This document shows, piece by piece, positions 11,828-60,966 of a DNA stretch of 64,000 nt. Source of the DNA: Patescibacteria group bacterium UBA1388 (GTDB lineage Bacteria > Patescibacteriota > Microgenomatia > UBA1400 > PJMF01). The stretch covers positions 36,279 to 100,278 of the forward strand of contig DBQS01000016.1 in NCBI GenBank assembly GCA_002305355.1, given 5' to 3'. The translations under genes and the position numbers were made by a program. The stretch's first letter is position 1, and each line of letters begins with the position of its first letter. Under the pieces are notes generated by a model that did no database searches, was not told the origin of the DNA, and worked only from the letters and a program-made list of their open reading frames with translations.

Positions 11828-11830
11828 GCC

Positions 11831-13525: not shown

Positions 13526-13566
13526 ACTTTTATCATATACTAAAAATTAACTAAAATGAAACTTTT

Positions 13567-14643
13567 GTTAGTCGCACATACTTTTCGGAAAATTGGTTGT
13601 AATAAATTGCACTGGTGATTGATAATTTAGTGCCATATGTGGTCGCTTGGTGTTGTACCAAGCTAAGTACTTAGTTAGTTTAACTTGGAAAGTGTTTAAG
13701 TCATAGTAGATCTCATCATTTCTGTTAATAAACTCTTCTTGGATGGTTCTGTTAAATCTTTCAACAACACCATTAATTTTGGGTGATCTAGGATAAATAA
13801 ATTGATGTTTAATTTTTTGCTTCTCCAGATACTGGTGAAATGTTTTAAAAAATTCTGACCCGTTGTCTGTTTGGACTGTATAAACTTGATGAGGCAAAAT
13901 ATTTTGGAATTCCTGAAAAGTAATTTTAGCTTGCAAGCTAGAGAGAGTGCTAACTTTCCTGACATGAGCTAGCTTTGTAAAGATATCGATACAACACATG
14001 AAGTTGTGTCGAGTGTTGTCGATATACACCACCACAGAGTCCATTTCGATATATCCTGGTTTAGTAACCTTAGGAGATCTTCTTGATCTATCTTTAGATA
14101 ATTTATTCTTTCTCTTAACTCTTCTTGGTGGATCAAAGAATAAGTTTCTTCTCCTAATCACTTTAGAAATAGTTCGACTGCTAATTGAGGGTATATTAAG
14201 CTCACCAGCATATTCATCTAAAAAGATCTTGAGTTTTCTTTCTCCAATGTTGCCATGCTGCTCTCTAAACTCACGAATAAACTGAACTAATCTCCAATCA
14301 GTCGTCATCTGTCTAACTCTCTTGGGACGAGTCTTCTTAGGTACCAGTGATAACAGAGCTTTTCCAGATTCTTCATACTTTCTTTTCCAGTCATACAAGG
14401 TAGATTTGCCAATCTTGAATGCTTGAATAGCTGATTTGTAGCCATATTTGTAGTAGTGATCTAGCACGTGGAGTCTAAACTTGGCAGGATCTGATTTATC
14501 AAAGTTAAGTGAGTTTTCAAGTGTCTTCATCAACCAATCATACTGATTGTTATATGAAAACAACTCAATATTTCGTCTAATCCCAACTCCTTGTTTAACT
14601 TTCACGACTATCTTTCCATTCCGGAAAGTATCGTGCGACATTC
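13567..14643 (-). mobile_element. IS481-family-like insertion sequence (1077 bp) with imperfect terminal inverted repeats and a 7-bp target-site duplication, AACTTTT.
   Basis: IRL is GTTAGTCGCACATACTTTTCGGAA (13567-). IRR, as the reverse complement of 14620-14643, is GAATGTCGCACGATACTTTCCGGAA. AACTTTT occurs at 13560-13566 and again at 14644-14650. A single transposase ORF fills the element. Confidence 0.75.
13568..14641 (-). CDS. DDE transposase (rve integrase core) with an N-terminal HTH, IS481-like.
   Basis: YIEMDSVVVYID...VQTDNGSEFF...INGVVERFNRT forms the D, D, E triad of the rve domain. The start codon lies inside the IR. Confidence 0.85.
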   Translation of the reverse strand: MSHDTFRNGKIVVKVKQGVGIRRNIELFSYNNQYDWLMKTLENSLNFDKSDPAKFRLHVLDHYYKYGYKSAIQAFKIGKSTLYDWKRKYEESGKALLSLVPKKTRPKRVRQMTTDWRLVQFIREFREQHGNIGERKLKIFLDEYAGELNIPSISSRTISKVIRRRNLFFDPPRRVKRKNKLSKDRSRRSPKVTKPGYIEMDSVVVYIDNTRHNFMCCIDIFTKLAHVRKVSTLSSLQAKITFQEFQNILPHQVYTVQTDNGSEFFKTFHQYLEKQKIKHQFIYPRSPKINGVVERFNRTIQEEFINRNDEIYYDLNTFQVKLTKYLAWYNTKRPHMALNYQSPVQFITTNFPKSMCD

Positions 14644-19775: not shown

Positions 19776-20486
19776 ATGGCAACATCACGCATTACCCTTT
19801 CACAAAAAAAACGTACTTTAAGATTCATTCACACCATTGGTCACGAGTTGAAACAACCTTTGAGTTTAATTAAGGCATATACTTACTACTTACGCAAATA
19901 CTTACCCAAAGATGAACAAGCTCAGCAGTATCCAATTAAAATCAGTCGTCAAGTGGACTTGCTGACTACAATGCTGAATGACATTGTGGAAACCTCAAAG
20001 CTCTCAATTAAAGAAATGAAGTTGTCTAAACAAAAGATTGAGTTAGGAAAGTTTGTCAAAAACCAAATTGCAGATCTTAGGTCTGCTTACCCCACCCGCA
20101 ATATTCAACTCGTGATAAAACATCATCCCAATTATATTCTGGGAGACAAGATGCGCTTGAGACAAGTAATCATGAATTTATTGACTAATGCACTTTCTTA
20201 TTCGAAGGCAGAGGATTCCATTCTTATTTCAATCAAACCAAGCCGCAAAACGATTCAACTGTCCATTACTGATCACGGCGTGGGAATTCACCAATCACAA
20301 TTAAAACATATTTTCGAACCTTACTACCGAACTGATGAATCTAAAAAAAGAGGAATTAAAGGCTTGGGATTAGGACTCGCAATCGTCAAAGAAATACTAA
20401 GGTTACACCAAGCCAAAATATCTGTCCAAAGTCAATTAAAGCGGGGCACGACATTTACAATCCGTTTTCCAAAAATAAGCATCTAA
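19776..20486 (+). CDS. Cytoplasmic sensor-less histidine kinase (HisKA + HATPase_c only).
   Basis: H-box IGHELKQPLSLIKAY. G-boxes GLGLGLAIVKEILRLHQAKISVQSQLKRGTTFTIRFP. No TM or sensor domain. Confidence 0.75.
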   Translation: MATSRITLSQKKRTLRFIHTIGHELKQPLSLIKAYTYYLRKYLPKDEQAQQYPIKISRQVDLLTTMLNDIVETSKLSIKEMKLSKQKIELGKFVKNQIADLRSAYPTRNIQLVIKHHPNYILGDKMRLRQVIMNLLTNALSYSKAEDSILISIKPSRKTIQLSITDHGVGIHQSQLKHIFEPYYRTDESKKRGIKGLGLGLAIVKEILRLHQAKISVQSQLKRGTTFTIRFPKISI

Positions 20487-20495
20487 CATCAACGA

Positions 20496-21173
20496 CTAGT
20501 CTGGCGGCGTCTGTATCATGTAACCAAAACCTCTGATTGATTTCAAGTATTTCTTGTGTTCATTTTCAATTTTTTTTCTTAAATATCCAACGTATACATC
20601 AACCACTCTTGTTTCTATATCTGGGTTACTATTCCAGATTCTAGACAAAATCATTTCCCTGCTTAACACCTTGTCGGGATTGGACATAAAATATTCAAGT
20701 AACTTAAATTCTTGAGCGGTCAAACTTATCGCCTTGCCCGCTTGAGTTACCTGATGAGTTGTGAGATTTAAAATTAAATCACCGACACGCAATTGTTGCA
20801 CAATTTTACCCCCTGAACGTAAACGAGCTTTGATGCGAGCGAGCAATACTTCTGGCACAATCGGTTTTGGAATGTAATCGTCTGCGCCCAAGTTTAAACC
20901 TTGGGCAATATCTTGCGGTGAACCCTCCGCAGTAATCATGATAACCTGAATTTGCGGATCATGAGCTTTGATTTTTTGACAAATTGTCCGTCCATCTAAA
21001 TCTGGCAAATTCAAATCTAGTAAGACTATTTCAGGACTGACTTTTTCAACGGAATTTAAGCCACTTAATCCCCGATAATCTACAAAAACCTGAAAACCTT
21101 CATCAACCAAAACATCTTTGATATAGTTGGCCATTTCCTGCTCATCTTCAATCACTTGAATAATACTATTCAT
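20496..21173 (-). CDS. OmpR-family response regulator (receiver + winged-helix DNA-binding domain).
   Basis: IVLLDLNLPDLDG ... LSRIWNSNPDIETRVVDVYVGYLRKKI...IRGFGY. Confidence 0.85.
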   Translation of the reverse strand: MNSIIQVIEDEQEMANYIKDVLVDEGFQVFVDYRGLSGLNSVEKVSPEIVLLDLNLPDLDGRTICQKIKAHDPQIQVIMITAEGSPQDIAQGLNLGADDYIPKPIVPEVLLARIKARLRSGGKIVQQLRVGDLILNLTTHQVTQAGKAISLTAQEFKLLEYFMSNPDKVLSREMILSRIWNSNPDIETRVVDVYVGYLRKKIENEHKKYLKSIRGFGYMIQTPPD

Positions 21174-23339: not shown

Positions 23340-25376
23340 ATGAGCAGTAATCAATCTTCGTCTGCTCAATTTCGCGGACAACATTTGCTGCCATCTGCCG
23401 TCTCACCAACGACAAAGATGGTATCTTTTTTGAATCTCGTCCATCAGGAATTATCTTCTTCTCTTGATTATGAGAAAACTATTCAAAGACTCGGAAAATT
23501 GGCTGTGCCAGTTTTGGCAGATTTGTTTATGATTGATGCGCTCAACGATGAGGGCCGAATTGAAACGCTTGCCATTTTTAACCAAGATCAAAAATCACTT
23601 CAAATCGCACTTCAGTTGAGGAAAGAGCAACCTATTAGTTTAAAAGCTACTCACGGAATTGGCAAGGTTCTTCGTACTGGTTTGGCAGAATTTTTTCCAA
23701 ACTTAGAACCGGAAGTCATAAAAAAACTTTATCCCAAATCGTCTCATTTTCGGGCAGCCATTGCCACAAAACCACTTTCAATGATCATCACTCCGGTTAA
23801 AACTAGAAATAAGATATTTGGCGCTTTTACGTTTGTCACCAACCAACAATCAAACAGAAAATACTCCCATATCGATTTATCTATTGCTCAGGATTTTGCC
23901 CATAGTGCCGCCCTAGCGCTCCACAACGCATATCTATTTTCCGAAACTCAACAAGTTAGCCTCCGTTATGAGCATTTGTTTCGTGGTATTAATGAAGCAG
24001 TCATAATTTTAAATAACAAAGGCAAGATTATTGATGCGAACCCAACTGCTCAAAAAATGTTGAGTGTCTCCGAACGAGATTTTGGTAATCAGAGCTTAAA
24101 TCAATTTTGTTCACACAAAAATCAACCACATCCCACAATCTTCAGTCAATTGCAAAACCATCGTACTTGGCAAACTGAACTCTATTTAAGATCGAAAAAT
24201 AAACAACTATTTTATGTTGAGCTACGAGCACAAAAAATCTTACTTCCCAAAGAAACAATCTATTCAGTTGTCCTTCATGATTTGACCGAGAGTAAGCGGA
24301 CATTTGAAACCAATGCCCGGTTGGCTGCGATCATTGCTTCGTCAGATGAAGCAATTATTGGTTTGAGCTTGTCTCACACCGTAACAAGCTGGAACAAAGG
24401 CGCTGAAAAAACTTTCGGTTATTTAGCTTCAGAAGTAATCGGGAAACAAATAAATTTTATTTATCCCAAACACCTCCAACATGAACTACTGCATTTTTCA
24501 AAAATCGTTAAAGATGGACAAAGTATCGATCACTTTCAAACGCAAAGACTACATAAGAATGGCAAATTAATTGATATTTCAATTAGTATTTCTCCCATTA
24601 GAGATGCTAATGGCCAAATTATCGGCACATCAACTATTTCTCGCGATATCACCGAAAGACTTAAAATAGAAAAGAGAAAAGATGAATTCTTGAGTGTGGC
24701 AAGCCATGAATTAAAAACACCAATTACTAGTATTAAAGCCTATGCCCAAATTTTGGAAAAATACTTCATCGATCAAGATAAGTCAAAATGTATGGTCATT
24801 AGCAAGAAAATGAACCGCCAAATTGACCGTTTATCCCAGCTAGTCTACGACTTGTTAGACATCTCAAAAATTGAACTTGGTCAAATGCAACTTAATTATG
24901 AAAAAGTATGTTTGTACGATTTACTGAAAGAAGCGGTGGCAGATATGCAAGCCTTTGCAAAACAACGCATCACGTTGGTTGGCCGCAGATATGCTCCTAT
25001 TTGTGCTGACGCTTACCGAGTGGACCAAGTGATGATTAATTTACTCACAAATGCAATCAAGTACTCTCCTTCTTCGAAAGAAATTAAAGTTTCTCAAAAA
25101 AAAATTGGTCGGCAACTCCAAGTTAGCATTCAAGATTTCGGTATTGGCATTGATCCTAAACATTTTGATCAAATATTCAGTAGATTTTATAGGATTGAAG
25201 GTAAAGACTCGGATAGCTACGGTGGTTTGGGATTAGGCTTATATATTTCCCATCAAATTATTCAACGCCATGGCGGTAGTATGTGGGTAGAGAGTAGCCT
25301 GGGCAAAGGTTCAACTTTCTATTTCACACTGCAAATCGATAAAAAATGCGAGGAATTGAAAGACAATCAAAAATGA
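23340..25376 (+). CDS. Cytoplasmic sensor histidine kinase with GAF and PAS domains.
   Basis: PAS block TSWNKGAEKTFGYLASEVIGKQINFIY. H-box FLSVASHELKTPITSIKAYAQIL. HATPase GGLGLGLYISHQIIQRHGGSMWVESSLGKGSTFYF. Confidence 0.8.
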   Translation: MSSNQSSSAQFRGQHLLPSAVSPTTKMVSFLNLVHQELSSSLDYEKTIQRLGKLAVPVLADLFMIDALNDEGRIETLAIFNQDQKSLQIALQLRKEQPISLKATHGIGKVLRTGLAEFFPNLEPEVIKKLYPKSSHFRAAIATKPLSMIITPVKTRNKIFGAFTFVTNQQSNRKYSHIDLSIAQDFAHSAALALHNAYLFSETQQVSLRYEHLFRGINEAVIILNNKGKIIDANPTAQKMLSVSERDFGNQSLNQFCSHKNQPHPTIFSQLQNHRTWQTELYLRSKNKQLFYVELRAQKILLPKETIYSVVLHDLTESKRTFETNARLAAIIASSDEAIIGLSLSHTVTSWNKGAEKTFGYLASEVIGKQINFIYPKHLQHELLHFSKIVKDGQSIDHFQTQRLHKNGKLIDISISISPIRDANGQIIGTSTISRDITERLKIEKRKDEFLSVASHELKTPITSIKAYAQILEKYFIDQDKSKCMVISKKMNRQIDRLSQLVYDLLDISKIELGQMQLNYEKVCLYDLLKEAVADMQAFAKQRITLVGRRYAPICADAYRVDQVMINLLTNAIKYSPSSKEIKVSQKKIGRQLQVSIQDFGIGIDPKHFDQIFSRFYRIEGKDSDSYGGLGLGLYISHQIIQRHGGSMWVESSLGKGSTFYFTLQIDKKCEELKDNQK

Positions 25377-39974: not shown

Positions 39975-40997
39975 TCAACCTTTTGATGGTAACCAGACAG
40001 AAAAAGTGCTGCCTTTGCGTACTGCTGACGTGACCATAATTTGACCGCCATGTTGGTCAACGATTTTTTGAGCCACCGATAAACCAAGTCCATACCCATG
40101 GTGTTGATAATTGCCACGAGTTTGATCTGCCCGATAAAACCTTTCAAAAATATGAGGGAGATCTCGGTGGGAGATTCCGCTTCCAAAATCTGTCACTTCT
40201 AACAAAACTTGGTTTTTTCGTTTATTGAGCTTAACTTTGATCACCGACCTTTTCGGGCTATACTTTAATGCATTATCAAGCAAAATTAGCACTAAATCTA
40301 AAAGTGCTCCTTCATCACCCCATACCCAATATTTAGTTTTCCCCTTTTCCAGTTGAATCGTGATCTCTTTTTTTTGGGCAGTGGCTTCCAAATATTCCAT
40401 ACCCCTAGTCACAATCTTTGTTAGGTTAAGCGGTTTTTTAATTAGCTGTTGATCTGTGACTTTTGCCAACCTTAATAAACTCTGACTGAGTGACTCCAGG
40501 CTTGTGACATCCTCTAAATTTTCCTTCAAAATTTTTTTCGTTTTTTTATCAAGTGCCCGATCCATTAAATTGACTTCAAGCGATGTTTTTAAGGCTGTGA
40601 TTGGAGTTTTCAATTCATGAGCTGCGTCGCCAATAAAGCGTTTTTGTTCCTCATGGATTTCTTCAATTGGCTTGAGTGTTTTGCCACTCAGAAAATACCC
40701 CGCTGCAGCAAAAAAAACAATAATAATTAAATTTATAATGATAAGCTGACCAGCAATTTGACTTTGAGCATTTCTTAAATCCTGAGGTGTAATTCTCCTC
40801 CCAAATCCTGGCCTACTTTGCAATCCAACTCCAGGCCATTCTTGCTGCAAGCGTTGTTCTATTCTGATATATTCTTGCTCTAAAACCGATGAAACGCGCA
40901 CATAAATCACGCCACTTAAAGAAGAAGTTATCAAAACGATGATCAGTAAGTACCACAGCGTTAATCTAATGCGAGCTGAAGCGAACATATCCGCCAT
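39975..40997 (-). CDS. Membrane sensor histidine kinase (2 TM, HisKA, HATPase_c).
   Basis: H-box IGDAAHELKTPITALKTSLEV. G-boxes GYGLGLSVAQKIVDQHGGQIMVTSAVRKGSTFSVWLP. Confidence 0.8.
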   Translation of the reverse strand: MADMFASARIRLTLWYLLIIVLITSSLSGVIYVRVSSVLEQEYIRIEQRLQQEWPGVGLQSRPGFGRRITPQDLRNAQSQIAGQLIIINLIIIVFFAAAGYFLSGKTLKPIEEIHEEQKRFIGDAAHELKTPITALKTSLEVNLMDRALDKKTKKILKENLEDVTSLESLSQSLLRLAKVTDQQLIKKPLNLTKIVTRGMEYLEATAQKKEITIQLEKGKTKYWVWGDEGALLDLVLILLDNALKYSPKRSVIKVKLNKRKNQVLLEVTDFGSGISHRDLPHIFERFYRADQTRGNYQHHGYGLGLSVAQKIVDQHGGQIMVTSAVRKGSTFSVWLPSKG

Positions 40998-40998
40998 A

Positions 40999-41679
40999 TT
41001 AATCAGTCACTCCAAACTTGTAACCAAATCCACGAACCGTGTGAATTAAGGGCTTTTCCTTCGGAAAAGCCCGATCTATTTTATTTCTCAAATAACCAAT
41101 GTAAACCTGAGCGGTGTTAGGTAAAACATCACTATCATAACTCCATACCTGCTCTGTGAGCTGATCCTTGGAAAGCACTTGTCCTTCATGCCTCATTAAA
41201 AATTCCAACAGCGCAAATTCTTTACGAGATAAAGAGATCGATTTGCCTGTTCTAGTTACCGCAAAACTTGTAGGATTAAGTTGCAGTGAACCAGACTGTA
41301 AAACTTCATTGACTTGTTTCTGTGGCCTTCTCGAAAGCGCCCGCACTCTGGCTAAGAGCTCGGTAAAAGCAAAAGGTTTGCCCAAATAATCGTCCGCCCC
41401 AGCATCCAAACCTTCTACCCGATCCTCGAGTTGAGTCTTGGCGGTCAACATTAAAATTGGCGTGTGATTACCAGCTGTTCTTAACTGCCGACAGATCTCC
41501 ATACCTGTCATGCTAGGTAACATTCTGTCCAAAATAATCACGTCATACTTTTCACCATCCGCCAAATCAAAACCTGTCGCTCCATCATAGGCCACATCCA
41601 CTATATAAGATTTAACTTCCAAACCTTTTTTGATGTAATTCGCAATTCGGTGTTCATCTTCAATTACCAAAATTTTCAT
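40999..41679 (-). CDS. OmpR-family response regulator.
   Basis: KILVIEDEHRIANYI...VIILDRMLPSMTG...VRGFGYKF. Lies 1 nt upstream of the kinase. Confidence 0.85.
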   Translation of the reverse strand: MKILVIEDEHRIANYIKKGLEVKSYIVDVAYDGATGFDLADGEKYDVIILDRMLPSMTGMEICRQLRTAGNHTPILMLTAKTQLEDRVEGLDAGADDYLGKPFAFTELLARVRALSRRPQKQVNEVLQSGSLQLNPTSFAVTRTGKSISLSRKEFALLEFLMRHEGQVLSKDQLTEQVWSYDSDVLPNTAQVYIGYLRNKIDRAFPKEKPLIHTVRGFGYKFGVTD

Positions 41680-50830: not shown

Positions 50831-51052
50831 ATGGAGATCATTGCTTTAGTCCATCCCCGTTCAAAAAAAGAAAAAGTGGAAAGCCTGGGTAATAATCACT
50901 TTAAAGTCTATGTCACTGCCCCACCTACTGATGGGAAAGCCAACCAGGCAGTGTTGGTTATTTTAGCAAAATATTTAAATATCAAGAAAAGCCAAATTGC
51001 ATTGGTGCGAGGCGAGAAATCCAAGCGAAAAGTTTTTGAGGTTCAACCCTGA
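50831..51052 (+). CDS. YggU/DUF167 (UPF0235) family small protein.
   Basis: VHPRSKKEKVESLGNNHFKVYVTAPPTDGKANQAVLVILAKYLNIKKSQIALVRGEKSKRK. Confidence 0.6.
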   Translation: MEIIALVHPRSKKEKVESLGNNHFKVYVTAPPTDGKANQAVLVILAKYLNIKKSQIALVRGEKSKRKVFEVQP

Positions 51053-51185: not shown

Positions 51186-53660
51186 CTAGATCAAGAGTGT
51201 CCCTCCTGCACCAACTTCAGTACGCAACAACGCATCCGCGACTTTATCAATTACGATTTGATTAATCGCTCTTTCCAGATGCCTCGCGCCAAATTCCTTG
51301 CTATAACCAGCTTGATACACTTGCTGAAATGTCTGATCACTAATCTGTAAAGTGATACCTTTTTCCTGTAACATTTTCTGGGAAAATATTCGGAGTTTAC
51401 GTTTGGCAATTTCTACAACATCTTCATATGAAAGTGGATGATACAACACAACACCATCAAAACGATTGACAAATTCTGGTCGTAAAATATCTTGCTGCAC
51501 CAAATAAGCAATCATCTCCTCAACTGATATCTCATTAGATAAATTTTGATACAGATAGTCACTCCCTGCATTAGAAGTCGCCACTACTACTGTGTGCTTG
51601 AAAGAAATATTTTCTCCTTTGCCATTGGTTAAATACCCTTCATCAAAAATTGTCATCAGTGCTAATTGGACTGAACGATGAGCTTTTTCAATTTCATCAA
51701 GCAACACTACTGAGTAAGGCTGTTTGTGGACTGCTTCTGTCAAAGCGCCTGCTGTGGGGTTGGTAGTTGAGCCAATCAAAGCTTCCAAACTCGCCTCTGT
51801 CACAAACTGCGCGCAATCAATTCTCACCAAGTGGTTGAGGTTGCCAAAAAATACTTTCGCCAGGGTTTTAGCAGTCTCCGTTTTACCCACACCAGTTGCC
51901 CCTAAAAAAAGAAAGGCGCCCATCGTCTTTTCTCTACCAGATAATTCCAAATTTGCCCTTTTGAGTGCACTGGATAATTGTTGAATGGCGTGCTTCTGAC
52001 CAACAATGGTTGCCGCTAAAGTTTCTTCTAACCTCGATAATTTGTCCTTTTGCTCGACCGTCAGCTCACCAATCATGCTATTGGTCTGTTTGGAAAAGAG
52101 AGCGTGCACATCTGCCTCGGTTACCACTTGATTTTGACTATACTTGGCAACCAACTCTAAAGCTCTCACCGAACTAGACGGTTGAGGTAAATTTGGATAT
52201 ACATAACTGGCATATTTTTCAATTTCTTTGATAGCAAAGAAAGTGAAGTATTTTTGCTTTGATTCAAATGAGGTAAGTAGATTGAGCAGCAGTTTGATTG
52301 TCTCTTCTCTACTCGAAGGCAACAGATCAATCGTATGCACCGAGGACAAAAATAAATTATCTTGTCTAATAACGTCCTTAAAATTGGTTTGGGTAGCTGT
52401 CATTAAAATCTTGACTTTATAGCGACCACTGACGCTACTTAAAACTGTGCTCAGGTTAGTTCCTTTTTGAGTGTTTTGTAAATAACGATCAACGTTGGCG
52501 ATCACCAAAATAATATTACCAGCGTGATGAGCTTCCGCTAAAACTTTTTCAAAAATGAAGTTTTTTGATTCTGCACTTTCAGAAGCCGATAAAGCCGCAT
52601 CTACATCCAACAACATCACCCGGTGGTCAGCTAGTTCAGGTGTAGTTTTCCCATCATAAATTCTTTTTGCTAAGAATTGCACCAGAGTCATCTTACCTGT
52701 GCCAGGAGCACCGCTCACCAGCACACTACTCACTGATGAACGTGAAAAAATTTGTTCAACCTGAGTGGTGACCTCTTGATGGATATCAAATTGCAACTGA
52801 TCAATACCCATGCTGGCTACATCGGTTGCGTACCGATCAATGGTTGGTGTATAACCAAATGCCCAATCTTTCCCGATCGATCTGGACTCACTCAATTTAC
52901 GAACCGTCCAAAATTGTTTGTCGTGATATTTTTTGATTTCATCTTCAATCACCCAGTTGCAAAGAAGCTGACAATCATGAATTGATAAACGGTGAGTGAT
53001 CAATAATTGCGAGTGCTCTTCTCGTGCTAACTCCTTAAATAAGATAGCAACCAACAACGATGATTTAGTATAAAACTGTTTGACTTGGGCATCATCCATA
53101 GGCTGCAACAAAGTAGTTGCACCGTTGCCCAACAATGTAAAAATTTTTTCTCGATCAGCAGTCTCAAATCTCAATCTCAAAAAGATTTCTCTGACTCGCG
53201 CATCATTTTGCATCGCGCTCACTAATAATCTTGGAGAACGTTGATATGATTTGTAAAGTTTGGGCAAGTGCGGGTGAGTTGCCGAAAACAAATAATAGTA
53301 CAAAGGAAAGTACACAAAGGTAATCGCCCAGACCGTGACTAACCCTAACCACACCACAATGAACATTGCCATCATCATGAGTCCCCAAAAAATGGTCGCC
53401 GACCGGATAATTGCGCCCATCATCGCGCTAACTGCATTATAAGAAAAGACGTCAAACATATCCTCAAAATCTAGTCCTTTTCTGGTACGCACCCGCATCA
53501 AGCGTTTCCAGGGAGCAAACAAGGTTTTGGCATGACGTGTAATGCCATACAGGTTCCAAAAATAGTAAAGATAATTGCGGAGAATTAACCACAGAAACGC
53601 AAGACCATCAACCAAGTACCACTGGAACGCCCGGGAAATAAACGGCATATCATTCATCAT
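51186..53660 (-). CDS. Hsp100/Clp-family double AAA+ ATPase with an N-terminal membrane anchor and a degenerate D1 Walker B.
   Basis: N-terminal TM helices (residues about 60-120). D1 Walker A SGAPGTGKMT, but the Walker B position reads IILVIANVDRY with no DE. D2 Walker A LGATGVGKTE, Walker B VVLLDEIEKAH, sensor VVATSNAGS. No ClpN domain and no IGF/IGL ClpP loop seen. Confidence 0.7.
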   Translation of the reverse strand: MMNDMPFISRAFQWYLVDGLAFLWLILRNYLYYFWNLYGITRHAKTLFAPWKRLMRVRTRKGLDFEDMFDVFSYNAVSAMMGAIIRSATIFWGLMMMAMFIVVWLGLVTVWAITFVYFPLYYYLFSATHPHLPKLYKSYQRSPRLLVSAMQNDARVREIFLRLRFETADREKIFTLLGNGATTLLQPMDDAQVKQFYTKSSLLVAILFKELAREEHSQLLITHRLSIHDCQLLCNWVIEDEIKKYHDKQFWTVRKLSESRSIGKDWAFGYTPTIDRYATDVASMGIDQLQFDIHQEVTTQVEQIFSRSSVSSVLVSGAPGTGKMTLVQFLAKRIYDGKTTPELADHRVMLLDVDAALSASESAESKNFIFEKVLAEAHHAGNIILVIANVDRYLQNTQKGTNLSTVLSSVSGRYKVKILMTATQTNFKDVIRQDNLFLSSVHTIDLLPSSREETIKLLLNLLTSFESKQKYFTFFAIKEIEKYASYVYPNLPQPSSSVRALELVAKYSQNQVVTEADVHALFSKQTNSMIGELTVEQKDKLSRLEETLAATIVGQKHAIQQLSSALKRANLELSGREKTMGAFLFLGATGVGKTETAKTLAKVFFGNLNHLVRIDCAQFVTEASLEALIGSTTNPTAGALTEAVHKQPYSVVLLDEIEKAHRSVQLALMTIFDEGYLTNGKGENISFKHTVVVATSNAGSDYLYQNLSNEISVEEMIAYLVQQDILRPEFVNRFDGVVLYHPLSYEDVVEIAKRKLRIFSQKMLQEKGITLQISDQTFQQVYQAGYSKEFGARHLERAINQIVIDKVADALLRTEVGAGGTLLI

Positions 53661-53724: not shown

Positions 53725-54210
53725 CTATTGAGGATCAGCTAAATTTTCAAGCAGTGTACTTTTTGGCTGCCCAAGCCGCCGATAAGTCAGGTCGATAGCA
53801 AACTTTCCCGCCAACATCGCCATAATTATGAGTACTAAACCAATAAAACCACTTATTTCTACGTCTTTACCAAAAATAAAGTCCAACACAGCCAGGAAAA
53901 CAAACTTAGAAAAAAACATCACTAGCCAAACGCTCAACACTAGCCACACTTTAGCCGCTTTACCATTTTTACTTTTGAAGTATTTAGCAATTTTTTTCTT
54001 CAACTCTAGGGTTAAGTAAGTCAAGATCTGCATCACCACCGCAACCATAAACGTGGTAGAGTAAGAAGTTGTGTTTAAAATGTCAGTGTAGTCATTAAAA
54101 AATCCCAATACTACTGCATAAACTAGTACTCCTAGCACCATTTGCAGAAATAAATCCTGCTTAGGAGTAGTAACAGATTTTAGAGTGGAAGCAGACTTGG
54201 GTTTGGTCAT
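53725..54210 (-). CDS. Small four-TM membrane protein.
   Basis: Hydrophobicity. Sits between the giant HD protein and the Clp-like gene. Confidence 0.4.
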   Translation of the reverse strand: MTKPKSASTLKSVTTPKQDLFLQMVLGVLVYAVVLGFFNDYTDILNTTSYSTTFMVAVVMQILTYLTLELKKKIAKYFKSKNGKAAKVWLVLSVWLVMFFSKFVFLAVLDFIFGKDVEISGFIGLVLIIMAMLAGKFAIDLTYRRLGQPKSTLLENLADPQ

Positions 54211-54302
54211 AATGAGTGATTATATAGCAAAACTGAAAATTTGGCTGATTTTGTTATCATTGAATCACAATTGTTCAGGCGAGTAGGAGATCTAATTAAT
54301 CA

Positions 54303-57300
54303 TTAAATGCGCTCTATAGCTTCGACCAACTTATCAAATTTTGGCTGGTATTTTTCACTGAAAGTCACCGGCGGCTTTCCTTGTGAGTTGCCAAATTGAA
54401 AAATATAACCCAAATTGTTTTTGTCTTTTCGTCCAGACGCATCGGCGGTATAACTGCCAGCATCACTGCTGTAATAAATCCTAATGAGTTCTAACACTTC
54501 TCTGGGTTGTGTTCGAAGTGTTTTAGCCAAACTTTTAATTTTTCGAACAGCTTTTTCTAGAGAGCCCTCAATTGTGGCAGTCACAAAATACTCACCCAAG
54601 ATATCCTGATCCACTACCGCCATTAATTTTTCCGATTCTTTAGGAGATAAACCGCAGGCCGGAAGAGCAAATTGTAGAATTTTTTTTGAGTACTCGTGTT
54701 GTTCAAATTTTTTGCCATCTTTTGCAGCCAATGATTTACCAATGTCATGGAGTGCCAATAAAATTCGGAAGTTGTCTTTGGTAATTGCACTCAAGTCATA
54801 GTCATTCGCAAAGTACTTTTCAAATTGTGCCATAACCATTAGGGTGTGCTCACGCAATGTGTATTTTTCGCTCACTCCAGAATCAAGCGTATATAGTGCC
54901 TTCATATACGGACAACTTTCAAATGCCTGAATTAATTGGTCTGGCGAAAATTGGCTTACGGTCAAGCAACTGTTAATTAGCTGAGAATCTATTTGGTTGC
55001 TTTGATAATCTTCAATGAAAAATTGCACTCTGCCATTTATGTCACAAACTGGAATATAAAAACCATTGTTGGCAATTTGAAAATAAAGTTGCTGTAGCTG
55101 CAAATCAGTCAAGTTGCCGTTGATCACAATCGCATCGATCTCTGTCGCGGCAATACCTGTCCGCACTCCATAGTGTCTCTGACCCAATAAACGTGACGGA
55201 ATTAATTCGTATCTATCTTTTCTTTTTCTTCTAAAATCTCCTTCTGGTTTAGTGTTATTTTTAAAGGAGAGATAAAACTGTTCCCTATCCCTAATTACAA
55301 AAGATACTCCACCATAATGATTATCTATAATACCCTGCAGATCTACTTCATGCTCATCTCCTTGTAAGTCTGAAGGTAAAATTCTAAAAAAATCTGCGTC
55401 ATAGGGGGTTCTATCTGAGTTAGCGGTATCACCCTCGGAACCAAGAAACTCCCTTGACTTAAAGCCGGTTTGTAATATGGAGTGACAATTATCAATATTG
55501 ACGGCTTTGATCAGATCACCAGCTGCAAAATTTAGTGTCCGATGACGATCGTCTCTGTTTTCAAATTGACTTTCAGCACTTGATCCTTGCTTACTCAACA
55601 GCTGCAAGGAACTAAGATTCCTTTCATGAGCTAATAATTTAACCTCATTCATCCTACTCAGAATCTCCTCAATCGTGCCATATCCGGCAGTAGAAAAGTA
55701 TTTTTCAACCAGATAATCTACTATGTTTGCGTCAGCAGATCCCACTAATTCTATTAATTGACGATATTGATCACTCAAAGGTAAATTTTTTTGAGGTACA
55801 TTATTTTTGGGATTCTTAATATCGTGGGATAGAATTGCTTTGATTTGTTGAAAGAAACTGTCTAATATAGTCGCCTCTTCCTCACTTACACCTTGAAATT
55901 CCGATGCACGAGCGCGATCTAATATGGCTTGATTTTCTCGCATCTCGGTTAGAAAAGACATTAGACTTTGATCCGCTGAATCAATGGCAATGTGTAGTAA
56001 ATCTCTCCAAAAAACCATTTTCACCACGTCAACATTGGATAGACTTTGCTCAGTTACAGTTCCCGATTCAATTAACTGATCAACATTTTCCGCGAGCATT
56101 CTTAAAAATGGGCTTAAATTTGCCTCACTCCCCCTACTCTTCAACTCTTTCCAAAATCTTGTCTCTCTGAAAATTGTGCCAGTCTGGAAATACAATCTCT
56201 CAAACACTAAATATTGCCTCACAAAAAGTGGTACATTATTGGCAATAAATATTTCTCCAATCTCTTTTGCAGCTTGCTTGGCTTGTTCTAAGGACAGCGG
56301 CAATAATTGTGGCAGCAATTCTTTGGAAAATATCTCAAGGTCTGGAATGCCTAATGATGAGATGTAATCATCAATATCCATGGCTTTCATGATATCGTCT
56401 ACACTCTTTAGACCAATACTGCTTAAGGTTAAATAAAGTCCTATTGATCTATTCTTTGATTTGTTAACAAATCTTTCATCAGCTTTGTATATTTTTAGCA
56501 TTTCTATAATCTGAGCAGCATTATTGCCGTCAAATAATTTAACCAATGCCAGTTGGATATAAGCATTAAATTCAAGAAAGTCGCGACTAGTCATCGTGTC
56601 TCTAAGAAAATCAACACACGCAAATGGATCTAGATCATCACACATATGTTCAATCGCGAACTTGACCCTATTAGTGAGTTCTCTATAAGCTGACGAGTTG
56701 ATCAGATTGCACGCAGTTTGTGCAGTTTTGATATCTACACCACGATTTATCAAACTATAAAGTGGTAGTGAATCCTTAAAAAATGATGAATTTCTCAAAA
56801 TAGAATTAATCTGTTTGGCGATAATTACATATTCACCGATTTGACCTGCTTTTTTATCCGGAATGATTGAATTTATCAAGCCTTTCTGGATAATCGTTTC
56901 AAAAGATGCAAATTCCTGGGCGTGTGACAATAGTGCGTCACAGATCTCCTTATTACTTAACAACCCTAAATATTTTTTGTATTCTTCCATGTTAAGCTGA
57001 TCACCCTTAGCAAATAAACTTGGATCAAGAAAATACTGTTCGAAATAATGCTCATCGTTTTCATCCCTGATCAACTCGACATAGAGTGAGAGAATCTCAT
57101 TCAGCTCATCTATTTGAACATGATAAAGAGTAATCAACTTAATCAACGCATCTACACCAAGATAGGAAAGATATTTAAAAGCCTTGTGTTCATAGATTTT
57201 ATCTTCAAACAAAAAGTGGATTAATAAATCCACCTCTTCTTGATAAGGTTTGCTTGTAAAGTAATCCACCAAAAATCTCCGAACATTGGTGCTCAAGCTA

Positions 57301-57533
57301 GCTAGCTGGGGATGAGTTAGTAATCGGACTACAAAATCATAAAGATCAGGATTTTCCAGATTCTTGATTTCCAACATACTCTTAATCTTTGGGTCGAGTT
57401 GTTGCTCCAGCTCTGCCAGTGGTGCATTATTATCTGAGATGGGATCAATAACTTCTTCAAGATCATGCTCTATTGATGTGGGTGGCAACTCAGCAACTGG
57501 TGATGCCAATTTATCTAATTCTGCTTCACTCAT
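54303..57533 (-). CDS. Giant (1076 aa) uncharacterised protein: a long alpha-helical repeat-like N-terminal region and a C-terminal HD-type phosphohydrolase domain.
   Basis: C-terminal H...HD...H...D motif set: LREHTLMV, LALHDIGK, FEQHEYS, AVVDQDILGEY. No P-loop. The central region carries HYGGVSFVIRD with no clear family. Confidence 0.55.
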   Translation of the reverse strand: MSEAELDKLASPVAELPPTSIEHDLEEVIDPISDNNAPLAELEQQLDPKIKSMLEIKNLENPDLYDFVVRLLTHPQLASLSTNVRRFLVDYFTSKPYQEEVDLLIHFLFEDKIYEHKAFKYLSYLGVDALIKLITLYHVQIDELNEILSLYVELIRDENDEHYFEQYFLDPSLFAKGDQLNMEEYKKYLGLLSNKEICDALLSHAQEFASFETIIQKGLINSIIPDKKAGQIGEYVIIAKQINSILRNSSFFKDSLPLYSLINRGVDIKTAQTACNLINSSAYRELTNRVKFAIEHMCDDLDPFACVDFLRDTMTSRDFLEFNAYIQLALVKLFDGNNAAQIIEMLKIYKADERFVNKSKNRSIGLYLTLSSIGLKSVDDIMKAMDIDDYISSLGIPDLEIFSKELLPQLLPLSLEQAKQAAKEIGEIFIANNVPLFVRQYLVFERLYFQTGTIFRETRFWKELKSRGSEANLSPFLRMLAENVDQLIESGTVTEQSLSNVDVVKMVFWRDLLHIAIDSADQSLMSFLTEMRENQAILDRARASEFQGVSEEEATILDSFFQQIKAILSHDIKNPKNNVPQKNLPLSDQYRQLIELVGSADANIVDYLVEKYFSTAGYGTIEEILSRMNEVKLLAHERNLSSLQLLSKQGSSAESQFENRDDRHRTLNFAAGDLIKAVNIDNCHSILQTGFKSREFLGSEGDTANSDRTPYDADFFRILPSDLQGDEHEVDLQGIIDNHYGGVSFVIRDREQFYLSFKNNTKPEGDFRRKRKDRYELIPSRLLGQRHYGVRTGIAATEIDAIVINGNLTDLQLQQLYFQIANNGFYIPVCDINGRVQFFIEDYQSNQIDSQLINSCLTVSQFSPDQLIQAFESCPYMKALYTLDSGVSEKYTLREHTLMVMAQFEKYFANDYDLSAITKDNFRILLALHDIGKSLAAKDGKKFEQHEYSKKILQFALPACGLSPKESEKLMAVVDQDILGEYFVTATIEGSLEKAVRKIKSLAKTLRTQPREVLELIRIYYSSDAGSYTADASGRKDKNNLGYIFQFGNSQGKPPVTFSEKYQPKFDKLVEAIERI

Positions 57534-57801: not shown

Positions 57802-58785
57802 ATGGCCCAAACAAATGAGACAATACCTTTAGAAATTTTAGCAAGCGAAGAGATTCCATCTATTAATTCTAATGGTCGTCTAAGAAGAGTGGGCATGAGA
57901 ATTTTTCGAAAAGGCGCTGAGATATTAACTAACATGCCCGGTAGTGAAAATTTTGTTCCTTACTTAAGATTGGCTGCTTCTGAAACACTTTGTCGCTTTC
58001 AGTACGGACGGGGAGACATGCCTCTGGTAGTGGGTATAGAAACCACATCCATATGCAATCGAAAATGTTCTTACTGCACGCAAAACAACCCTGAATTTAG
58101 AGATAAACACCCTACTAAATACATGAGTGCAGATTTATATACGAAAATTATTCAAGAATTGGCGGAATTTCAAAGAACATTTGATAAGAAAGGGTTTTGT
58201 GGAACATTGCATTTAAACGGTTTTGGAGAACCTTTGAAAGATCCAAGCATTATCAGCAGAGTTGAGGAGGCAAGAAACGCACTAGCAGAAGCAAGAATTG
58301 GTTTTTATTCAAATGGTGATTTACTCACTGAAGACAAATATCTGCAACTACGCGCCGCTGGCATTGACGAGATTTTAATAACTCCCCATGGTGGTCAACA
58401 TCCAAAAAAATTAGTTTCCCTAGCAACAAAATATAAGCAAGATCGCATCATTACCTTGCTGCCTCCTTTAGTGACATATTCTAACCGTGGGGGCGAGGTT
58501 GAATTAGGCGATAAAACCCAACAATCCCCTGTCCGTCATTGCATTCATCCAACTTATGCATTAGAGATAACCTCGAATGGAGTGGCAATTTATTGTGCAA
58601 ACGACTCAATGTTAAGAAGACCCAGAGGAAATGTGGCAGAGTCTTCAATAATGAGTATTTGGGATGATCCAACTTATGTGAAATTAAGACGCGATTTAAG
58701 ACGCGGCAATATTGACCGGCTGCCGGATGTTTGCCTAGCTTGCAGAACCAATGGTTCTAATCCATCAGCAAACAATAATGCTTAA
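57802..58785 (+). CDS. Radical SAM enzyme with a C-terminal SPASM/twitch-like Cys-rich domain and an N-terminal extension of about 75 aa.
   Basis: CNRKCSYC (CxxxCxxC) at residues about 85-92. C-terminal C...P...LEITSNGVAIYC and DVCLAC. Confidence 0.75.
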   Translation: MAQTNETIPLEILASEEIPSINSNGRLRRVGMRIFRKGAEILTNMPGSENFVPYLRLAASETLCRFQYGRGDMPLVVGIETTSICNRKCSYCTQNNPEFRDKHPTKYMSADLYTKIIQELAEFQRTFDKKGFCGTLHLNGFGEPLKDPSIISRVEEARNALAEARIGFYSNGDLLTEDKYLQLRAAGIDEILITPHGGQHPKKLVSLATKYKQDRIITLLPPLVTYSNRGGEVELGDKTQQSPVRHCIHPTYALEITSNGVAIYCANDSMLRRPRGNVAESSIMSIWDDPTYVKLRRDLRRGNIDRLPDVCLACRTNGSNPSANNNA

Positions 58786-58808: not shown

Positions 58809-59384
58809 TTATCCGCATCTTTTTGAAATGCTGATAAATATATAGAGTAAAGCGAAAAATAAAATCGTCCAACTGAGAATAAACAAAATCAACTTCGGTG
58901 CAAGCAACACAGGAACCAACCAAACCACACTCACGATGGCTAGAGTAAATATTGATAAATAAACTAAGCTAATAAATATTACACTTTGCCTTAATTTAAG
59001 ACGTGATTGATTTTTCCAAATCCTTTTAAATAAAACCTGGGCCAAAAACCCAACCCCGGCCAACACTACCAAGACTATCAGCACCTGGATAAAACTAGTG
59101 TTTGGTACGAGTTGACCAACAATCAACAGCTCTACTGCTTGATATGGTTGTGCCAATAATATTTGTTTTTGATTGATTGTACTAGAAATATTCTCATGAT
59201 TCATACTCAGGGCAATTAGGCCGACCGGCAATGCTGATAAAATCAATAGATTAAAAATCAATAATCCCAGCAAGGTGTGAAGACAGTAATCAAGCAAAAT
59301 TTTGATGATTTGATGTACTATTTTTGGGCAAGAGAGAATTTTTGAATAATTTTTGCTTTTTTTCACTTCTTGATTATAGAACAA
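58809..59384 (-). CDS. Multi-TM membrane protein.
   Basis: Hydrophobicity only. Confidence 0.35.
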   Translation of the reverse strand: MFYNQEVKKSKNYSKILSCPKIVHQIIKILLDYCLHTLLGLLIFNLLILSALPVGLIALSMNHENISSTINQKQILLAQPYQAVELLIVGQLVPNTSFIQVLIVLVVLAGVGFLAQVLFKRIWKNQSRLKLRQSVIFISLVYLSIFTLAIVSVVWLVPVLLAPKLILFILSWTILFFALLYIFISISKRCG

Positions 59385-59493: not shown

Positions 59494-60966
59494 ATGCAAA
59501 AAGAACGACTTTCAAGAAGAGATTTTCTAAAACTGGCAGCAGTCCCAATCGGAGTAGCTATTCTCGGAATTGAAGACTGTCAAAATTTGCATGCAGAAAG
59601 TTCTCCCGATCAACTAATCACCCCCGAATCAACGGATGGCTCCTACTGGCCATCGATGTACGATGTTGGTTATTGGGATGTTGTGAAGAATCAAAGCTAT
59701 TACTACAAAATGGGAGAAGTAATCCAAAAAATTAAGTATAGCCACAACGTCACAGCTGTTGGTTTTGGTTTTGAAACGCATATCCCAATTGGTAAAGACA
59801 AGCGTGTAGGCCCCAACTCAAATACTGTTAGTGAAGACTGGTTTTCATCAACGCCAGAAGGATCATATCAATTTAGATATCAAGATTTTATGACAACTTA
59901 TGGGGAATATATGGAGTATCTATATAATCTCTCTACTAATGAGGGTTTTAATGATTTTAAGATCAATATTGAATATCGAGTAATTCAACATCTTGATCCA
60001 AGTGTCATGATGTGTGTATTAAGCGATTTAACCGACGCAATTACCTGTAATTCAAATAATTATTCACTAACACTCGTTAATATCAATTACCTATTAAATC
60101 CTCTGAACAACTCAAATGAAAATAAGCTGATTGATGGTGAAATACTTCGATTTGCACTTACCCATGAATTTTTGCATTCTACCCGTGACTTGAATGGATA
60201 TGTTAGGTCATATATGGATGAGGCGTTCGCTGATGCATTTGCTATTGATTACTACACCGCCCATCCGCTTACACCACTCTATGACAAACAAAAAGTGATC
60301 TCAATAATCAGGACTAATAGGGCAAAGTTATTCTTTGATCGTCGACAAATCAGCAATAAAGCATCAGAAGGTTACGAACACTCTGCCTTGGTTTCACAAC
60401 TGATGAGAAAATATCAATACAACTGGCAGCAAGTCTTTGCAAATCTTAAAGCCAGCAGATGTCACTTATTTCGATTATCCTATGACGAGATACTGCAAAT
60501 AATTTTCCCCAATATTGATCTTGAAGAAGCCTATGTCCAATATTTGGGGCAAGCCTTGCTAGATCCTGGTGTTGGAGACGCAGATTTGTTTGATCACGTT
60601 AGACAGATGCGGCAAGACAACATTAATTTACTGGAAATAGGTTTCCCAGACCAAACATTCACTCTTCAGCCGGGAGAATTCAAATATATTGCTTTTGATA
60701 CAACAAGTATTAGGGGTGATTTCACACCCCAGTTGAAAGTGACCGATGAATTGCTGGCAGGCATGTTGATAGAAGATGAACAACGCATTGTTAGAGTACA
60801 TAATGGCACACTTTTCCGTGAAAAAGATGAGGGCAGACACGTGGGTTTTGTGATCTATAATCATGGTGAGTCTGACGGCACTGTTGTCATGACGGCATTT
60901 GATTTAAGATCATTAACAGAAAGAACTCATTTGCCAAATATTTTAAATAGCTCCTCTCCATTTTGA
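59494..60966 (+). CDS. Tat-signal exported protein with an HExxH motif (putative zinc metallopeptidase).
   Basis: N-terminus MQKERLSRRDFLKLAAVPIGVAILGI is a consensus twin-arginine motif (SRRxFLK). Internal FALTHEFLHSTRD has HExxH. Confidence 0.5.
   Translation: MQKERLSRRDFLKLAAVPIGVAILGIEDCQNLHAESSPDQLITPESTDGSYWPSMYDVGYWDVVKNQSYYYKMGEVIQKIKYSHNVTAVGFGFETHIPIGKDKRVGPNSNTVSEDWFSSTPEGSYQFRYQDFMTTYGEYMEYLYNLSTNEGFNDFKINIEYRVIQHLDPSVMMCVLSDLTDAITCNSNNYSLTLVNINYLLNPLNNSNENKLIDGEILRFALTHEFLHSTRDLNGYVRSYMDEAFADAFAIDYYTAHPLTPLYDKQKVISIIRTNRAKLFFDRRQISNKASEGYEHSALVSQLMRKYQYNWQQVFANLKASRCHLFRLSYDEILQIIFPNIDLEEAYVQYLGQALLDPGVGDADLFDHVRQMRQDNINLLEIGFPDQTFTLQPGEFKYIAFDTTSIRGDFTPQLKVTDELLAGMLIEDEQRIVRVHNGTLFREKDEGRHVGFVIYNHGESDGTVVMTAFDLRSLTERTHLPNILNSSSPF

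Follow-up and report, generated by a model that had tools for sequence, protein, structure and literature searches.

The 64,000-nucleotide (nt) stretch of DNA analysed here (the window) comes from Patescibacteria group bacterium UBA1388 (GenBank assembly GCA_002305355.1, contig DBQS01000016.1), and on its minus strand, at 51186..53660, it carries an intact gene of one open frame, 824 codons long with the stop included, whose product (hereafter the query) joins two tandem AAA+ modules of the Hsp100/Clp kind to a membrane module of its own. We regard it as almost certain that this gene is an intact member of a large, uncharacterised class-1 (two-ring) Hsp100/Clp AAA+ subfamily which, among the genomes sampled, belongs to the Patescibacteria (Candidate Phyla Radiation, CPR) only. 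From the N- to the C-terminus the architecture comprises the membrane module, a diverged Clp_N-like domain, a first AAA+ module (D1), a short connector, a second AAA+ module (D2) and a D2-small domain (Table 1). The true start of the open reading frame (ORF) is probably Met5, because most homologues begin at that position; 820-residue members are present in the query's own 90% cluster, and a weak sigma-70-like site lies upstream of the gene at 53750-53722.

Table 1. Features of the Clp-like gene and its product, in window coordinates (aa, amino acids; AF2, AlphaFold2)
Feature	Residues (aa)	Position (nt)	Strand	Basis or remark
Whole ORF, 824 aa (stop included)		51186..53660	-	likely start Met5 at nt 53648
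Helix 1, amphipathic; conserved W14, N29, F38	7-37	53550..53642	-	AF2 helix 7-37
Signature loop TLFAPWKR	46-53	53502..53525	-	P50, W51 kept in at least 90% of 113 members
Amphipathic helix; polar face N75, S78, R79-equivalent, G82, R86	65-86	53403..53468	-	column statistics
Uncharged apolar membrane segment	87-127	53280..53402	-	no charge over 41 residues
Eight-helix domain, strongly diverged, Clp_N-like	132-248	52917..53267	-	hhalign; no Pfam match
Linker motif GKDWAFGYTPTIDRYATD	263-280	52821..52874	-	family consensus IGxxWxYGYTPxLDxxxxDL
D1 AAA+ module, catalytic motifs degenerate	294-510	52131..52781	-	phmmer, AF2, Foldseek
D1 P-loop GAPGTGKMT, Met324 in place of Walker A Thr/Ser		52686..52712	-	alignment
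D1 pore-1 position LSASESAE; canonical AG(A/S)KYRGE		52569..52592	-	phmmer, MAFFT
D1 Walker B position IILVI-AN-VD; canonical hhhhDE		52488..52514	-	phmmer, MAFFT
D1 arginine-finger position LFLSSVH; canonical ALERRFQ		52335..52355	-	phmmer, MAFFT
Short D1-D2 connector (P494..L541), no M-domain insertion	494-541	52038..52181	-	48 aa
D2 AAA+ module	545-740	51441..52028	-	Pfam AAA_2
D2 Walker A GATGVGKTE		51876..51902	-	alignment
D2 pore-1 loop GSTTNPTAG, GYVG lost		51747..51773	-	phmmer, MAFFT
D2 Walker B LLDEIE		51687..51710	-	alignment
D2 sensor-1 TSNA		51567..51578	-	alignment
Region of the ClpP-docking IGF/LGF loop of ClpA/ClpC/ClpX; tripeptide absent		51477..51572	-	alignment
D2 arginine finger R733		51456..51479	-	alignment
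ClpB_D2-small domain	743-822	51195..51434	-	Pfam PF10431
Sensor-2 GAR, R793		51282..51290	-	kept in 101/102 members

The class-1 assignment follows from the two tandem AAA+ modules, of which the second is of the AAA_2 type and is followed by ClpB_D2-small. Pfam matches AAA_2 at residues 579-735 of D2 (E 1e-40) and ClpB_D2-small with E 1.4e-14, yields just weak generic P-loop matches over residues 295-420, and gives no match at all in residues 1-290. The best sequence matches in the PDB are ClpB and ClpC (phmmer), with the D1 of ClpB aligning to residues 294-466 of the query. The top NCBIfam models are those for ClpB, ClpA, ClpG/K and ClpV, and the scores lie far below every cut-off: 298.6 bits against 1232.1 for the ClpB equivalog TIGR03346, 262.4 against 993.15 for the ClpA model TIGR02639, and 228.3 against 884.95 for the ClpV/TssH model TIGR03345. 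In an AF2 model built with a 113-sequence family alignment (pLDDT 93.7, pTM 0.88), about 570 residues of the body superpose in Foldseek on chains of ClpC, ClpC1 and ClpB, at a target-normalised TM-score of about 0.8.

D1 keeps the AAA+ fold in this model and has lost nearly everything that would make it an ATPase. An earlier, automated reading of the sequence (the first-pass annotation) had noted GxxGxGKxT in D1; the letters do match, yet this is no canonical Walker A, since the Mg-coordinating Thr or Ser after the Lys has become Met. The same reading had D1 without Walker B acids, and here we agree: FIDELH of ClpB aligns to VIANVD in both phmmer and MAFFT, A388 and N389 come straight after strand 383-387 in the AF2 model, and an alternative DE pair, looked for by alignment, does not exist at this position. 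Beyond what was noted earlier, the Walker A Thr is missing from the query D1, and so are the pore tyrosine, where S-E-S-A replaces KYRG, and both arginine fingers, so that GKM, VIAN and LSSV stand where a catalytically competent D1 would have GK[ST], hhhhDE and the Arg fingers. The same picture extends across the family, for which we took motif frequencies from 102 full-length representatives and N-terminal column statistics from 113 members. At the Walker A Lys position of D1, 62 of the 102 have Lys and 39 have Arg; the next residue is Ser or Thr in 8, a Walker B with the canonical DE pair is seen in 10, the first Arg finger is kept in 5, and the pore Tyr is found in none. None of the 10 members with the DE pair has the Walker A Lys, the sole frequent alternative there being Arg, and therefore no sampled member has a fully canonical D1.

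D2, by comparison, had been called canonical, and in its catalytic residues it is exactly that: GATGVGKTE, LLDEIE, TSNA, R733 and GAR793 are all in canonical form, and the Walker A Lys, the DE pair, the sensor-1 Asn, R733 and R793 are each kept in 101-102 of the 102 members. The pore-1 loop of the same ring is another matter. The canonical G-[AS]PPGYVGYEEG-G is reduced to G-STTNPTA-G, with four residues deleted, in what the AF2 model draws as the loop between helices 624-629 and 639-646. The loop has 9 residues in 78 of the 102 members, versus 13 in ClpC and ClpA, it is rich in S, P, G, E, T and N with 2.7% aromatic residues, and the columns between its two invariant glycines are hypervariable, at 2.4-3.7 bits of entropy. 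With KYRG replaced in D1 and GYVG deleted in D2, neither ring has an aromatic paddle, the element with which Hsp100/Clp proteins grip and translocate polypeptides; ClpB Y251 and Y653 and ClpX Y153 are needed for function.

Two further hallmarks of the better-known Clp proteins are likewise missing, in keeping with what had been read from the sequence at first. K323 and K593, the two Walker A lysines, lie 270 residues apart, which is the spacing given originally, and the connector between the modules measures 48 residues versus 111 in ClpC and more in ClpB, which leaves no M-domain; in the family it spans 48-56 residues in 101 of 102 members (60 in the other), versus 111 in the ClpC and 84 in the ClpA control. 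As for the ClpP-docking loop, the query has no [ILVMF]G[FLIM] tripeptide between its sensor-1 and PEF motifs, and only 2 of the 102 members have one, against LGF in the aligned ClpC control and IGF in the aligned ClpA control.

The N-terminal part of the model runs from a helix at residues 7-37 through a short helix (40-45), a conserved loop and a long helix (65-128) to the eight-helix domain. Modelled alone, the N-terminal 262 residues reach a pLDDT of 92, and a Foldseek search of them against the PDB returned no significant match (best E = 4), so that the membrane module, which also has no Pfam family, is without a solved analogue. The eight-helix domain resembles a diverged Clp_N-like domain: in hhalign, residues 142-234 align with canonical Clp N-domains over 90 columns (probability 87.6%, E 3.5e-6), and a weak Foldseek match links the query N-domain to that of PfHsp101. 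Shorter family members partly delete this domain. In the linker motif that follows, G269 and T271 are nearly invariant in the family, and the C-terminal half matches the canonical Clp 'LxxYxxDLT' (MAFFT).

Within the membrane module, helix 1 can be rejected as a transmembrane (TM) segment, as it is amphipathic, with a family mean hydropathy of about 0.6, K/R at positions 21, 25 and 28, and conserved K/R/N positions. The basic signature loop is strongly conserved (T46-L-F-x-P50-W51-K-R53), as is the polar face of the amphipathic helix, in which the R86 position is Arg in 111 of 113 members and K or R in all, G82 is kept in 111 and N75 in 102. Then comes the apolar segment, with a Kyte-Doolittle peak of 2.39 and a regular layout of about 24 residues, a conserved W111, a conserved P119 and another 15-18 apolar residues; the median length of the uncharged stretch is 38 residues in fused proteins and 41 in those encoded by split genes (see below). 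The first-pass annotation had postulated an N-terminal TM anchor and had worried that the hydrophobic segment might be an amphipathic helix. A 41-residue uncharged segment inside a conserved N-terminal module is not merely amphipathic; its conservation across the family supports the association with the membrane, and it is what one would look for in an anchor of the Msp1/FtsH type. Ahead of the stretch each sequence has about 6 K/R, the invariant R86 among them, which makes this flank strongly basic, and split-type module proteins end no more than about 1 residue past the stretch. We therefore think it fairly likely that the segment forms a tight hairpin or re-entrant anchor, in which the chain starts in the cytoplasm, reaches the opposite interface at W111 and comes back to the cytoplasmic side; such a hairpin is favoured because of the basic flank (the positive-inside rule), the end of split modules at the stretch, and the need for the ATPase to be cytoplasmic.

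The combination of these features recurs. A first homology search returned close relatives at 86% and 56% identity (the latter at locus L001) together with a set of about 30%-identical proteins from Patescibacteria metagenome-assembled genomes (MAGs) (Gottesmanbacteria, 'Patescibacteria group'), and a further close relative, at 77%, is found at locus L004. Among the 34 proteins of that first search, all those with an N-terminal hydrophobic region are without GYVG, KYRG, the D1 DE-H and RR, and the IGF-type tripeptide is absent from all but one of them, the exception being a regular-expression match that arose by chance away from the docking-loop position. The soluble proteins, by contrast, nearly all carry GYVG/KYRG/DE-H/RR/IGF-type motifs. 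Since all membrane-type relatives show the full combination and no soluble Clp protein retrieved does so, it is not due to chance. When a profile of the N-terminal 292 residues was run exhaustively against 1.84 billion cluster representatives, it gave 1843 matches at E<=1e-3 and 1143 clusters (50% identity) at E<=1e-10, the best 150 matches being mostly 715-900 residues long, as expected for the module fused to a Clp body. A word-indexed protein search with the N-terminal profile gave 3 matches, all small stand-alone module proteins.

A scan for TLFAPWKR with five N-terminal sequences, taking one genome per species, yielded 91 confirmed loci, of which 80 were kept, and ORFs were called in 84 loci (the 80, 3 further ones and the window). 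In 27 of the 84 the module is fused to the ATPase, as in the query; in 46 a module gene lies directly upstream of a Clp-like gene, and the remaining 11 are truncated or ambiguous. The split module ORF, at about 125 residues (roughly 120-135), is exactly the module and stops at the apolar stretch. The split ATPase ORF, of about 790-860 residues counted from the first in-frame ATG, abuts it, often with a 4-nt overlap. Split-type ATPases, which are the P0016/P0024 group of the first search, have an N-terminal two-helix hydrophobic hairpin of their own and the same degenerate D1, intact D2 and absence of GYVG as the fused proteins. Fused loci are titled Gottesman-, Woese-, Ames-, Moran- and Portnoybacteria, and split loci Saccharibacteria, Berkel-, Zambryski-, Nealson- and Kaiserbacteria and Paceibacterota. 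The query itself bears all the marks of the subfamily: TLFxPWKR, the N-x2-S-R-x2-G-x3-R helix, an apolar segment of about 40 residues, and the fused ATPase. Such fission and fusion, the 'Rosetta stone' pattern, is strong genomic evidence that module and ATPase act together, and we propose that they are one functional unit, fused here and elsewhere encoded by two adjacent, often overlapping genes.

These loci also dispose of a more trivial explanation, in which the gene would be an artefact, either an ORF fused by frameshift, a worry already voiced at first, or a decaying copy of ClpC. The degenerate D1 motifs, and the existence of the membrane part as a separate ORF in other genomes, could be taken in its favour. 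At the same time, the 824-codon frame is open, relatives at 86%, 77% and 56% identity share the architecture, the D2 residues do not vary, AF2 gives a very confident model, and 27 independent loci and about 100 full-length representatives carry the fusion, for which reason the fusion is genuine and not a product of frameshift. We consider the artefact or pseudogene reading effectively refuted, with a residual likelihood close to nil.

Regardless of the specific mechanism, the distribution of the family may bring at least one cultivated organism into view. Consider Southlakia epibionticum, for which Wang et al. (Cell 2023, PMC10633639, Tables S1/S2) provide transposon sequencing (Tn-seq) data and annotation. 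There, SEML1_0701, a 127-aa hypothetical protein, overlaps SEML1_0700, an 860-aa 'AAA family ATPase' with AAA_2 at 544-706 and ClpB_D2-small at 713-792, weak D1 matches only and no Clp_N or UVR domain (PMC10633639), and the two are probably a split-architecture pair of the family. Both genes are called NE, NE, GD over three passages, and their normalised reads drop together, by way of 4124, 2517 and 1638 for one gene and 258, 157 and 51 for the other; the field 'is Patescibacteria enriched' is 0 for both (PMC10633639). The same genome has a canonical ClpC (SEML1_0512, with two Clp_N and a UVR domain) and a ClpP (SEML1_0493), both non-essential (PMC10633639). If the orthology holds, the family would be no substitute for ClpC/ClpP, it would be dispensable while still adding fitness, and both of its genes would behave alike.

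What might such a protein do? The reading that we favour, itself an even call on present motifs, is that the Clp-like protein works in a non-canonical way, its D2 motions acting on or through the membrane module or on membrane-proximal clients, rather than by processive threading with a tyrosine grip. Conservation of the intersubunit Arg finger and of sensor-2 leads us to expect a hexamer, which would sit on the cytoplasmic face of the membrane, anchored by six copies of the module. D1 would be a structural or assembly ring only, whose conserved P-loop glycines may still allow a ligand to bind, and D2, with every catalytic residue kept, would be the sole ATP-hydrolysing motor. Docking of ClpP should be impossible because the IGF loop is absent, and ClpB-style coupling to DnaK should be impossible because the M-domain is absent. 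ATP-driven D2 movements are probably not used for threading of the classical kind, since both pore-1 loops are short, polar, hypervariable and non-aromatic; they would be passed to the module or act on clients beside it, which would amount to remodelling or switching at the membrane. Two elements of the first-pass annotation carry over into this reading, namely that the protein is non-proteolytic, in that the ClpP-docking loop is missing from the query and from 100 of 102 relatives, and that it is D2-powered, in that the D2 catalytic residues are kept in 101-102 of 102 and D1 is degenerate family-wide. More speculatively, and we think this unlikely, the family could be a Patescibacteria-specific, ATP-driven membrane machine, an Hsp100 ring that no longer threads polypeptide and that, through the module with its 12 to about 24 TM helices per hexamer, gates, assembles or powers transport or remodelling at the envelope. 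If that were true, these ultra-small bacteria, which depend on a host, might for example use it to take material derived from the host, such as proteins or lipids, across their membrane or to move it within the membrane.

Several observations weigh against this reading, or at least against a confident version of it. The mechanism is read from motifs only, and the match to the Southlakia pair is one of annotation and architecture only. Phe or Tyr occurs near the start of the D2 loop in about 18 of the 102 members, and 3 of 49 split-type proteins keep 'GY'; the loss of aromatics argues against canonical threading, and the family may instead have a weaker or a different way of gripping substrate. 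AF2, which has no knowledge of the membrane, shows a single straight helix over residues 65-128 in place of the hairpin that we favour, and its confidence is lower beyond residue 110. No conserved gene neighbour across the family loci points to a client or a pathway. Finally, some carrier MAGs (TPA entries; loci L005, L010, L014-L016, L018, L026, L035, L039, L042 and L004) are titled 'uncultured Gammaproteobacteria', 'Pseudomonadales' or 'Bdellovibrionales', labels that we suspect to be wrong because every other lineage-named carrier is a member of the Patescibacteria.

The first-pass annotation had gone further and proposed an unfoldase or extractase. This part is not supported, for it implies threading, yet both pore-1 loops lack the aromatic that canonical Hsp100 threading needs. 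We nonetheless give some room, with considerable doubt, to a classical threading enzyme akin to Msp1/ATAD1 or the FtsH ATPase in which D2 alone pulls proteins of the membrane, or close to it, through the axial pore. It would make sense of the membrane tether, of an intact D2 motor whose intersubunit Arg finger implies a ring, of a two-ring body like that of ClpC/ClpB, of the Clp_N-like region as a putative substrate or adaptor domain, and of the minority of members with an aromatic in or near the D2 loop. What it does not explain is why the aromatic-hydrophobic pair of known threading Hsp100s is gone from both pore-1 loops, why the D2 loop is 4 residues shorter, and why that loop is among the least conserved parts of D2, the opposite of what substrate gripping would lead one to expect. 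The same missing aromatics argue against polypeptide threading by a translocon motor resembling PTEX, seated under a pore of its own membrane helices (12 in fused proteins, more in split ones) and serving export or import of protein or another polymer across the CPR membrane. Here the obligatory linkage of module to ATPase, fused or adjacent, the additional 2-TM hairpin of split-type ATPases and the weak N-domain match to PfHsp101 are all suggestive, and the family is seen here only in CPR lineages, whose cultivated members are host-dependent epibionts (PMC10633639). Against this, no secretion-system neighbours of the Clp-like gene were seen, and the probable Southlakia pair is dispensable, with just a mild, late fitness defect; we judge such a translocon improbable.

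Equally improbable, in our estimation, is a membrane-bound pseudo-unfoldase that would perform little mechanical work and act as a nucleotide-dependent scaffold or switch, with assembly or the recruitment of partners controlled by its ATP state. A D1 that has already become a pseudo-ATPase, degenerate pore loops and a domain layout modelled with high confidence (the pTM given above) would all suit a scaffold; but the D2 Walker B Glu, sensor-1 Asn, Arg finger and sensor-2 Arg are kept in 101-102 of 102 members, and conservation of these hydrolysis residues speaks for selection on turnover and not on binding alone. As for a membrane-bound protease, in which ClpP would dock through a non-canonical surface, we would give it hardly any credence. 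The Saccharibacterium Southlakia does have ClpP, but it also has a canonical ClpC able to serve that ClpP, the IGF/LGF loop present in our controls is absent, and feeding a protease would be inefficient without pore tyrosines. Nor is there a ClpP within the 64-kb window, to which this search was confined (tblastn with E. coli ClpP and Pfam scans of 50 window ORFs), and ClpX, Lon and FtsH are not encoded there either.

Set beside known systems, the subfamily is closest to ClpB, ClpC and ClpA, with which it shares tandem AAA+ modules, an AAA_2-type D2 followed by D2-small, all D2 catalytic residues, the 'LxxYxxDLT' linker, the superposable body and, probably, a Clp_N-like N-domain. It alone has an N-terminal membrane module, a dead D1 and a D2 loop without GYVG (the 4-residue deletion); unlike ClpB and ClpC it lacks the M-domain, and unlike ClpA and ClpC the IGF/LGF loop. 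Pex1/Pex6 is a type-II AAA+ with a dead D1 ring and an active D2, held at the membrane by small, tail-anchored Pex15/Pex26. The split form, with its 125-aa membrane protein and its ATPase, parallels this arrangement; Pex1/Pex6, however, belongs to another AAA clade, is eukaryotic, has aromatic D2 pore loops that thread Pex5, and consists of soluble ATPases. PTEX offers a ClpB-type Hsp100 without ClpP, HSP101, coupled to a membrane-embedded partner, EXP2, but HSP101 keeps its pore tyrosines and an M-domain-like insertion, and EXP2 is unrelated to the query module. Msp1/ATAD1 and FtsH are hexameric AAA+ rings held at the cytoplasmic side of the membrane by an N-terminal anchor; these have a single AAA module of a non-Clp clade and aromatic pore loops, to which FtsH adds a protease domain, whereas the query has no aromatic extraction loop of the Msp1/FtsH type. 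Another likeness is to Torsin with LAP1/LULL1 (PMC5425593 and general knowledge), a Clp-D2-related AAA+ without aromatic pore residues, with an N-terminal hydrophobic segment that associates it with the membrane, a catalytically inactive AAA-like partner and an action that is apparently not threading. Torsin differs in having a single ring module, in being luminal to the endoplasmic reticulum, and in receiving its Arg finger from the partner; the query has two modules in cis and its own R733, kept in 101 of 102 members. ClpI of Actinomycetota, an additional, recently recognised double-ring Clp class with some sub-classes that lack LGF, was also considered and rejected as an identity, because its ATPase modules and translocation motifs are described as intact and its M-domain as of ClpC length, and no membrane module is mentioned in the abstract (PMC10149685).

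Our literature searches found no description of a Clp-like subfamily with a membrane module, and what we describe appears to be a new, uncharacterised branch of Hsp100/Clp, membrane-tethered, independent of ClpP and of the M-domain, and driven by D2 only. Textbooks use Hsp100/Clp proteins to illustrate how pore-loop tyrosines thread polypeptide hand over hand. The strongly conserved branch described here, with more than 1100 clusters (50% identity), retains a competent D2 motor, yet has lost the tyrosines of both rings, the M-domain and the ClpP loop and has gained an obligate membrane partner. Either threading works without aromatic paddles, or the scaffold has been reused for membrane work other than threading, and both bear on the mechanism of AAA+ proteins in general. 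In this context, what is annotated as a 'Clp protease ATP-binding subunit' and a 'hypothetical protein' is a two-component module widespread in Patescibacteria, and the probable pair in genetically tractable Southlakia epibionticum, with its concordant mild fitness defect, makes the question directly testable.

The surroundings of the gene are variable. Directly upstream in the window lie genes for a 161-aa hydrophobic and a 1076-aa protein (53725-57533, minus strand), neither with a Pfam match; their order is shared only with the 77% relative (L004) and not with the 56% relative (L001). On the other side, convergent with the Clp-like gene, is an ORF of about 73 residues (50831-51052, plus strand), DUF167/YggU-like as judged from its sequence alone, with homologous ORFs at L004, where they follow the Clp-like gene on its downstream side, and at L043. 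In eight split loci (L030, L050, L054, L055, L056, L059, L067, L075) a gene for an FtsQ-like POTRA protein (POTRA_1, E 2e-4) stands directly upstream of the module gene, with a Dus-like gene downstream and serS, dprA and topA farther upstream, these four read from their sequences; rather than marking a division cluster, this neighbour is probably part of a housekeeping block (topA, dprA, serS, dus) specific to the lineage. An apparent 89-aa 'family' in 30 loci was discarded as an antisense shadow ORF within D2.

The rest of the window contains several systems of separate interest. The closest named relatives of its arginyl-tRNA synthetase (ArgRS), at 38-52% identity, are all Patescibacteria (Pace-, Davies-, Ames- and Woesebacteria), the GC content is about 38%, and neither a tRNA nor an Rfam match was found in the window, nor were type VI secretion system genes among the window ORFs scanned. 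Three adjacent minus-strand genes, nitroreductase/SagB-like (5346-6482), ThiF-family (6483-7586) and one for a 543-aa protein without a Pfam match (7590-9221), together resemble a peptide-modification cluster of the kind that makes ribosomally synthesized and post-translationally modified peptides (RiPPs); the next ORF, Glu/Leu dehydrogenase-like (9106-10161), overlaps the 543-aa gene by 116 nt as called. Type IV pilus/type II secretion system (T2SS) genes, encoding a PilC-like T2SSF and a PilB-like T2SSE with MshEN, lie beside an rve-family transposase (13568-14641) within 10772-14641 on the minus strand. A radical-SAM and SPASM enzyme (57802-58785, plus strand) adjoins unannotated ORFs of 191 aa (58809-59384) and 490 aa (59494-60966). 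Lastly, the window encodes four histidine kinases, one 7TM-GAF and one PAS-rich, and two OmpR-type response regulators (3099-5339, 19776-21173, 23340-25376 and 39975-41679), a density of regulators that seems high for what is presumed to be a small Patescibacteria genome.

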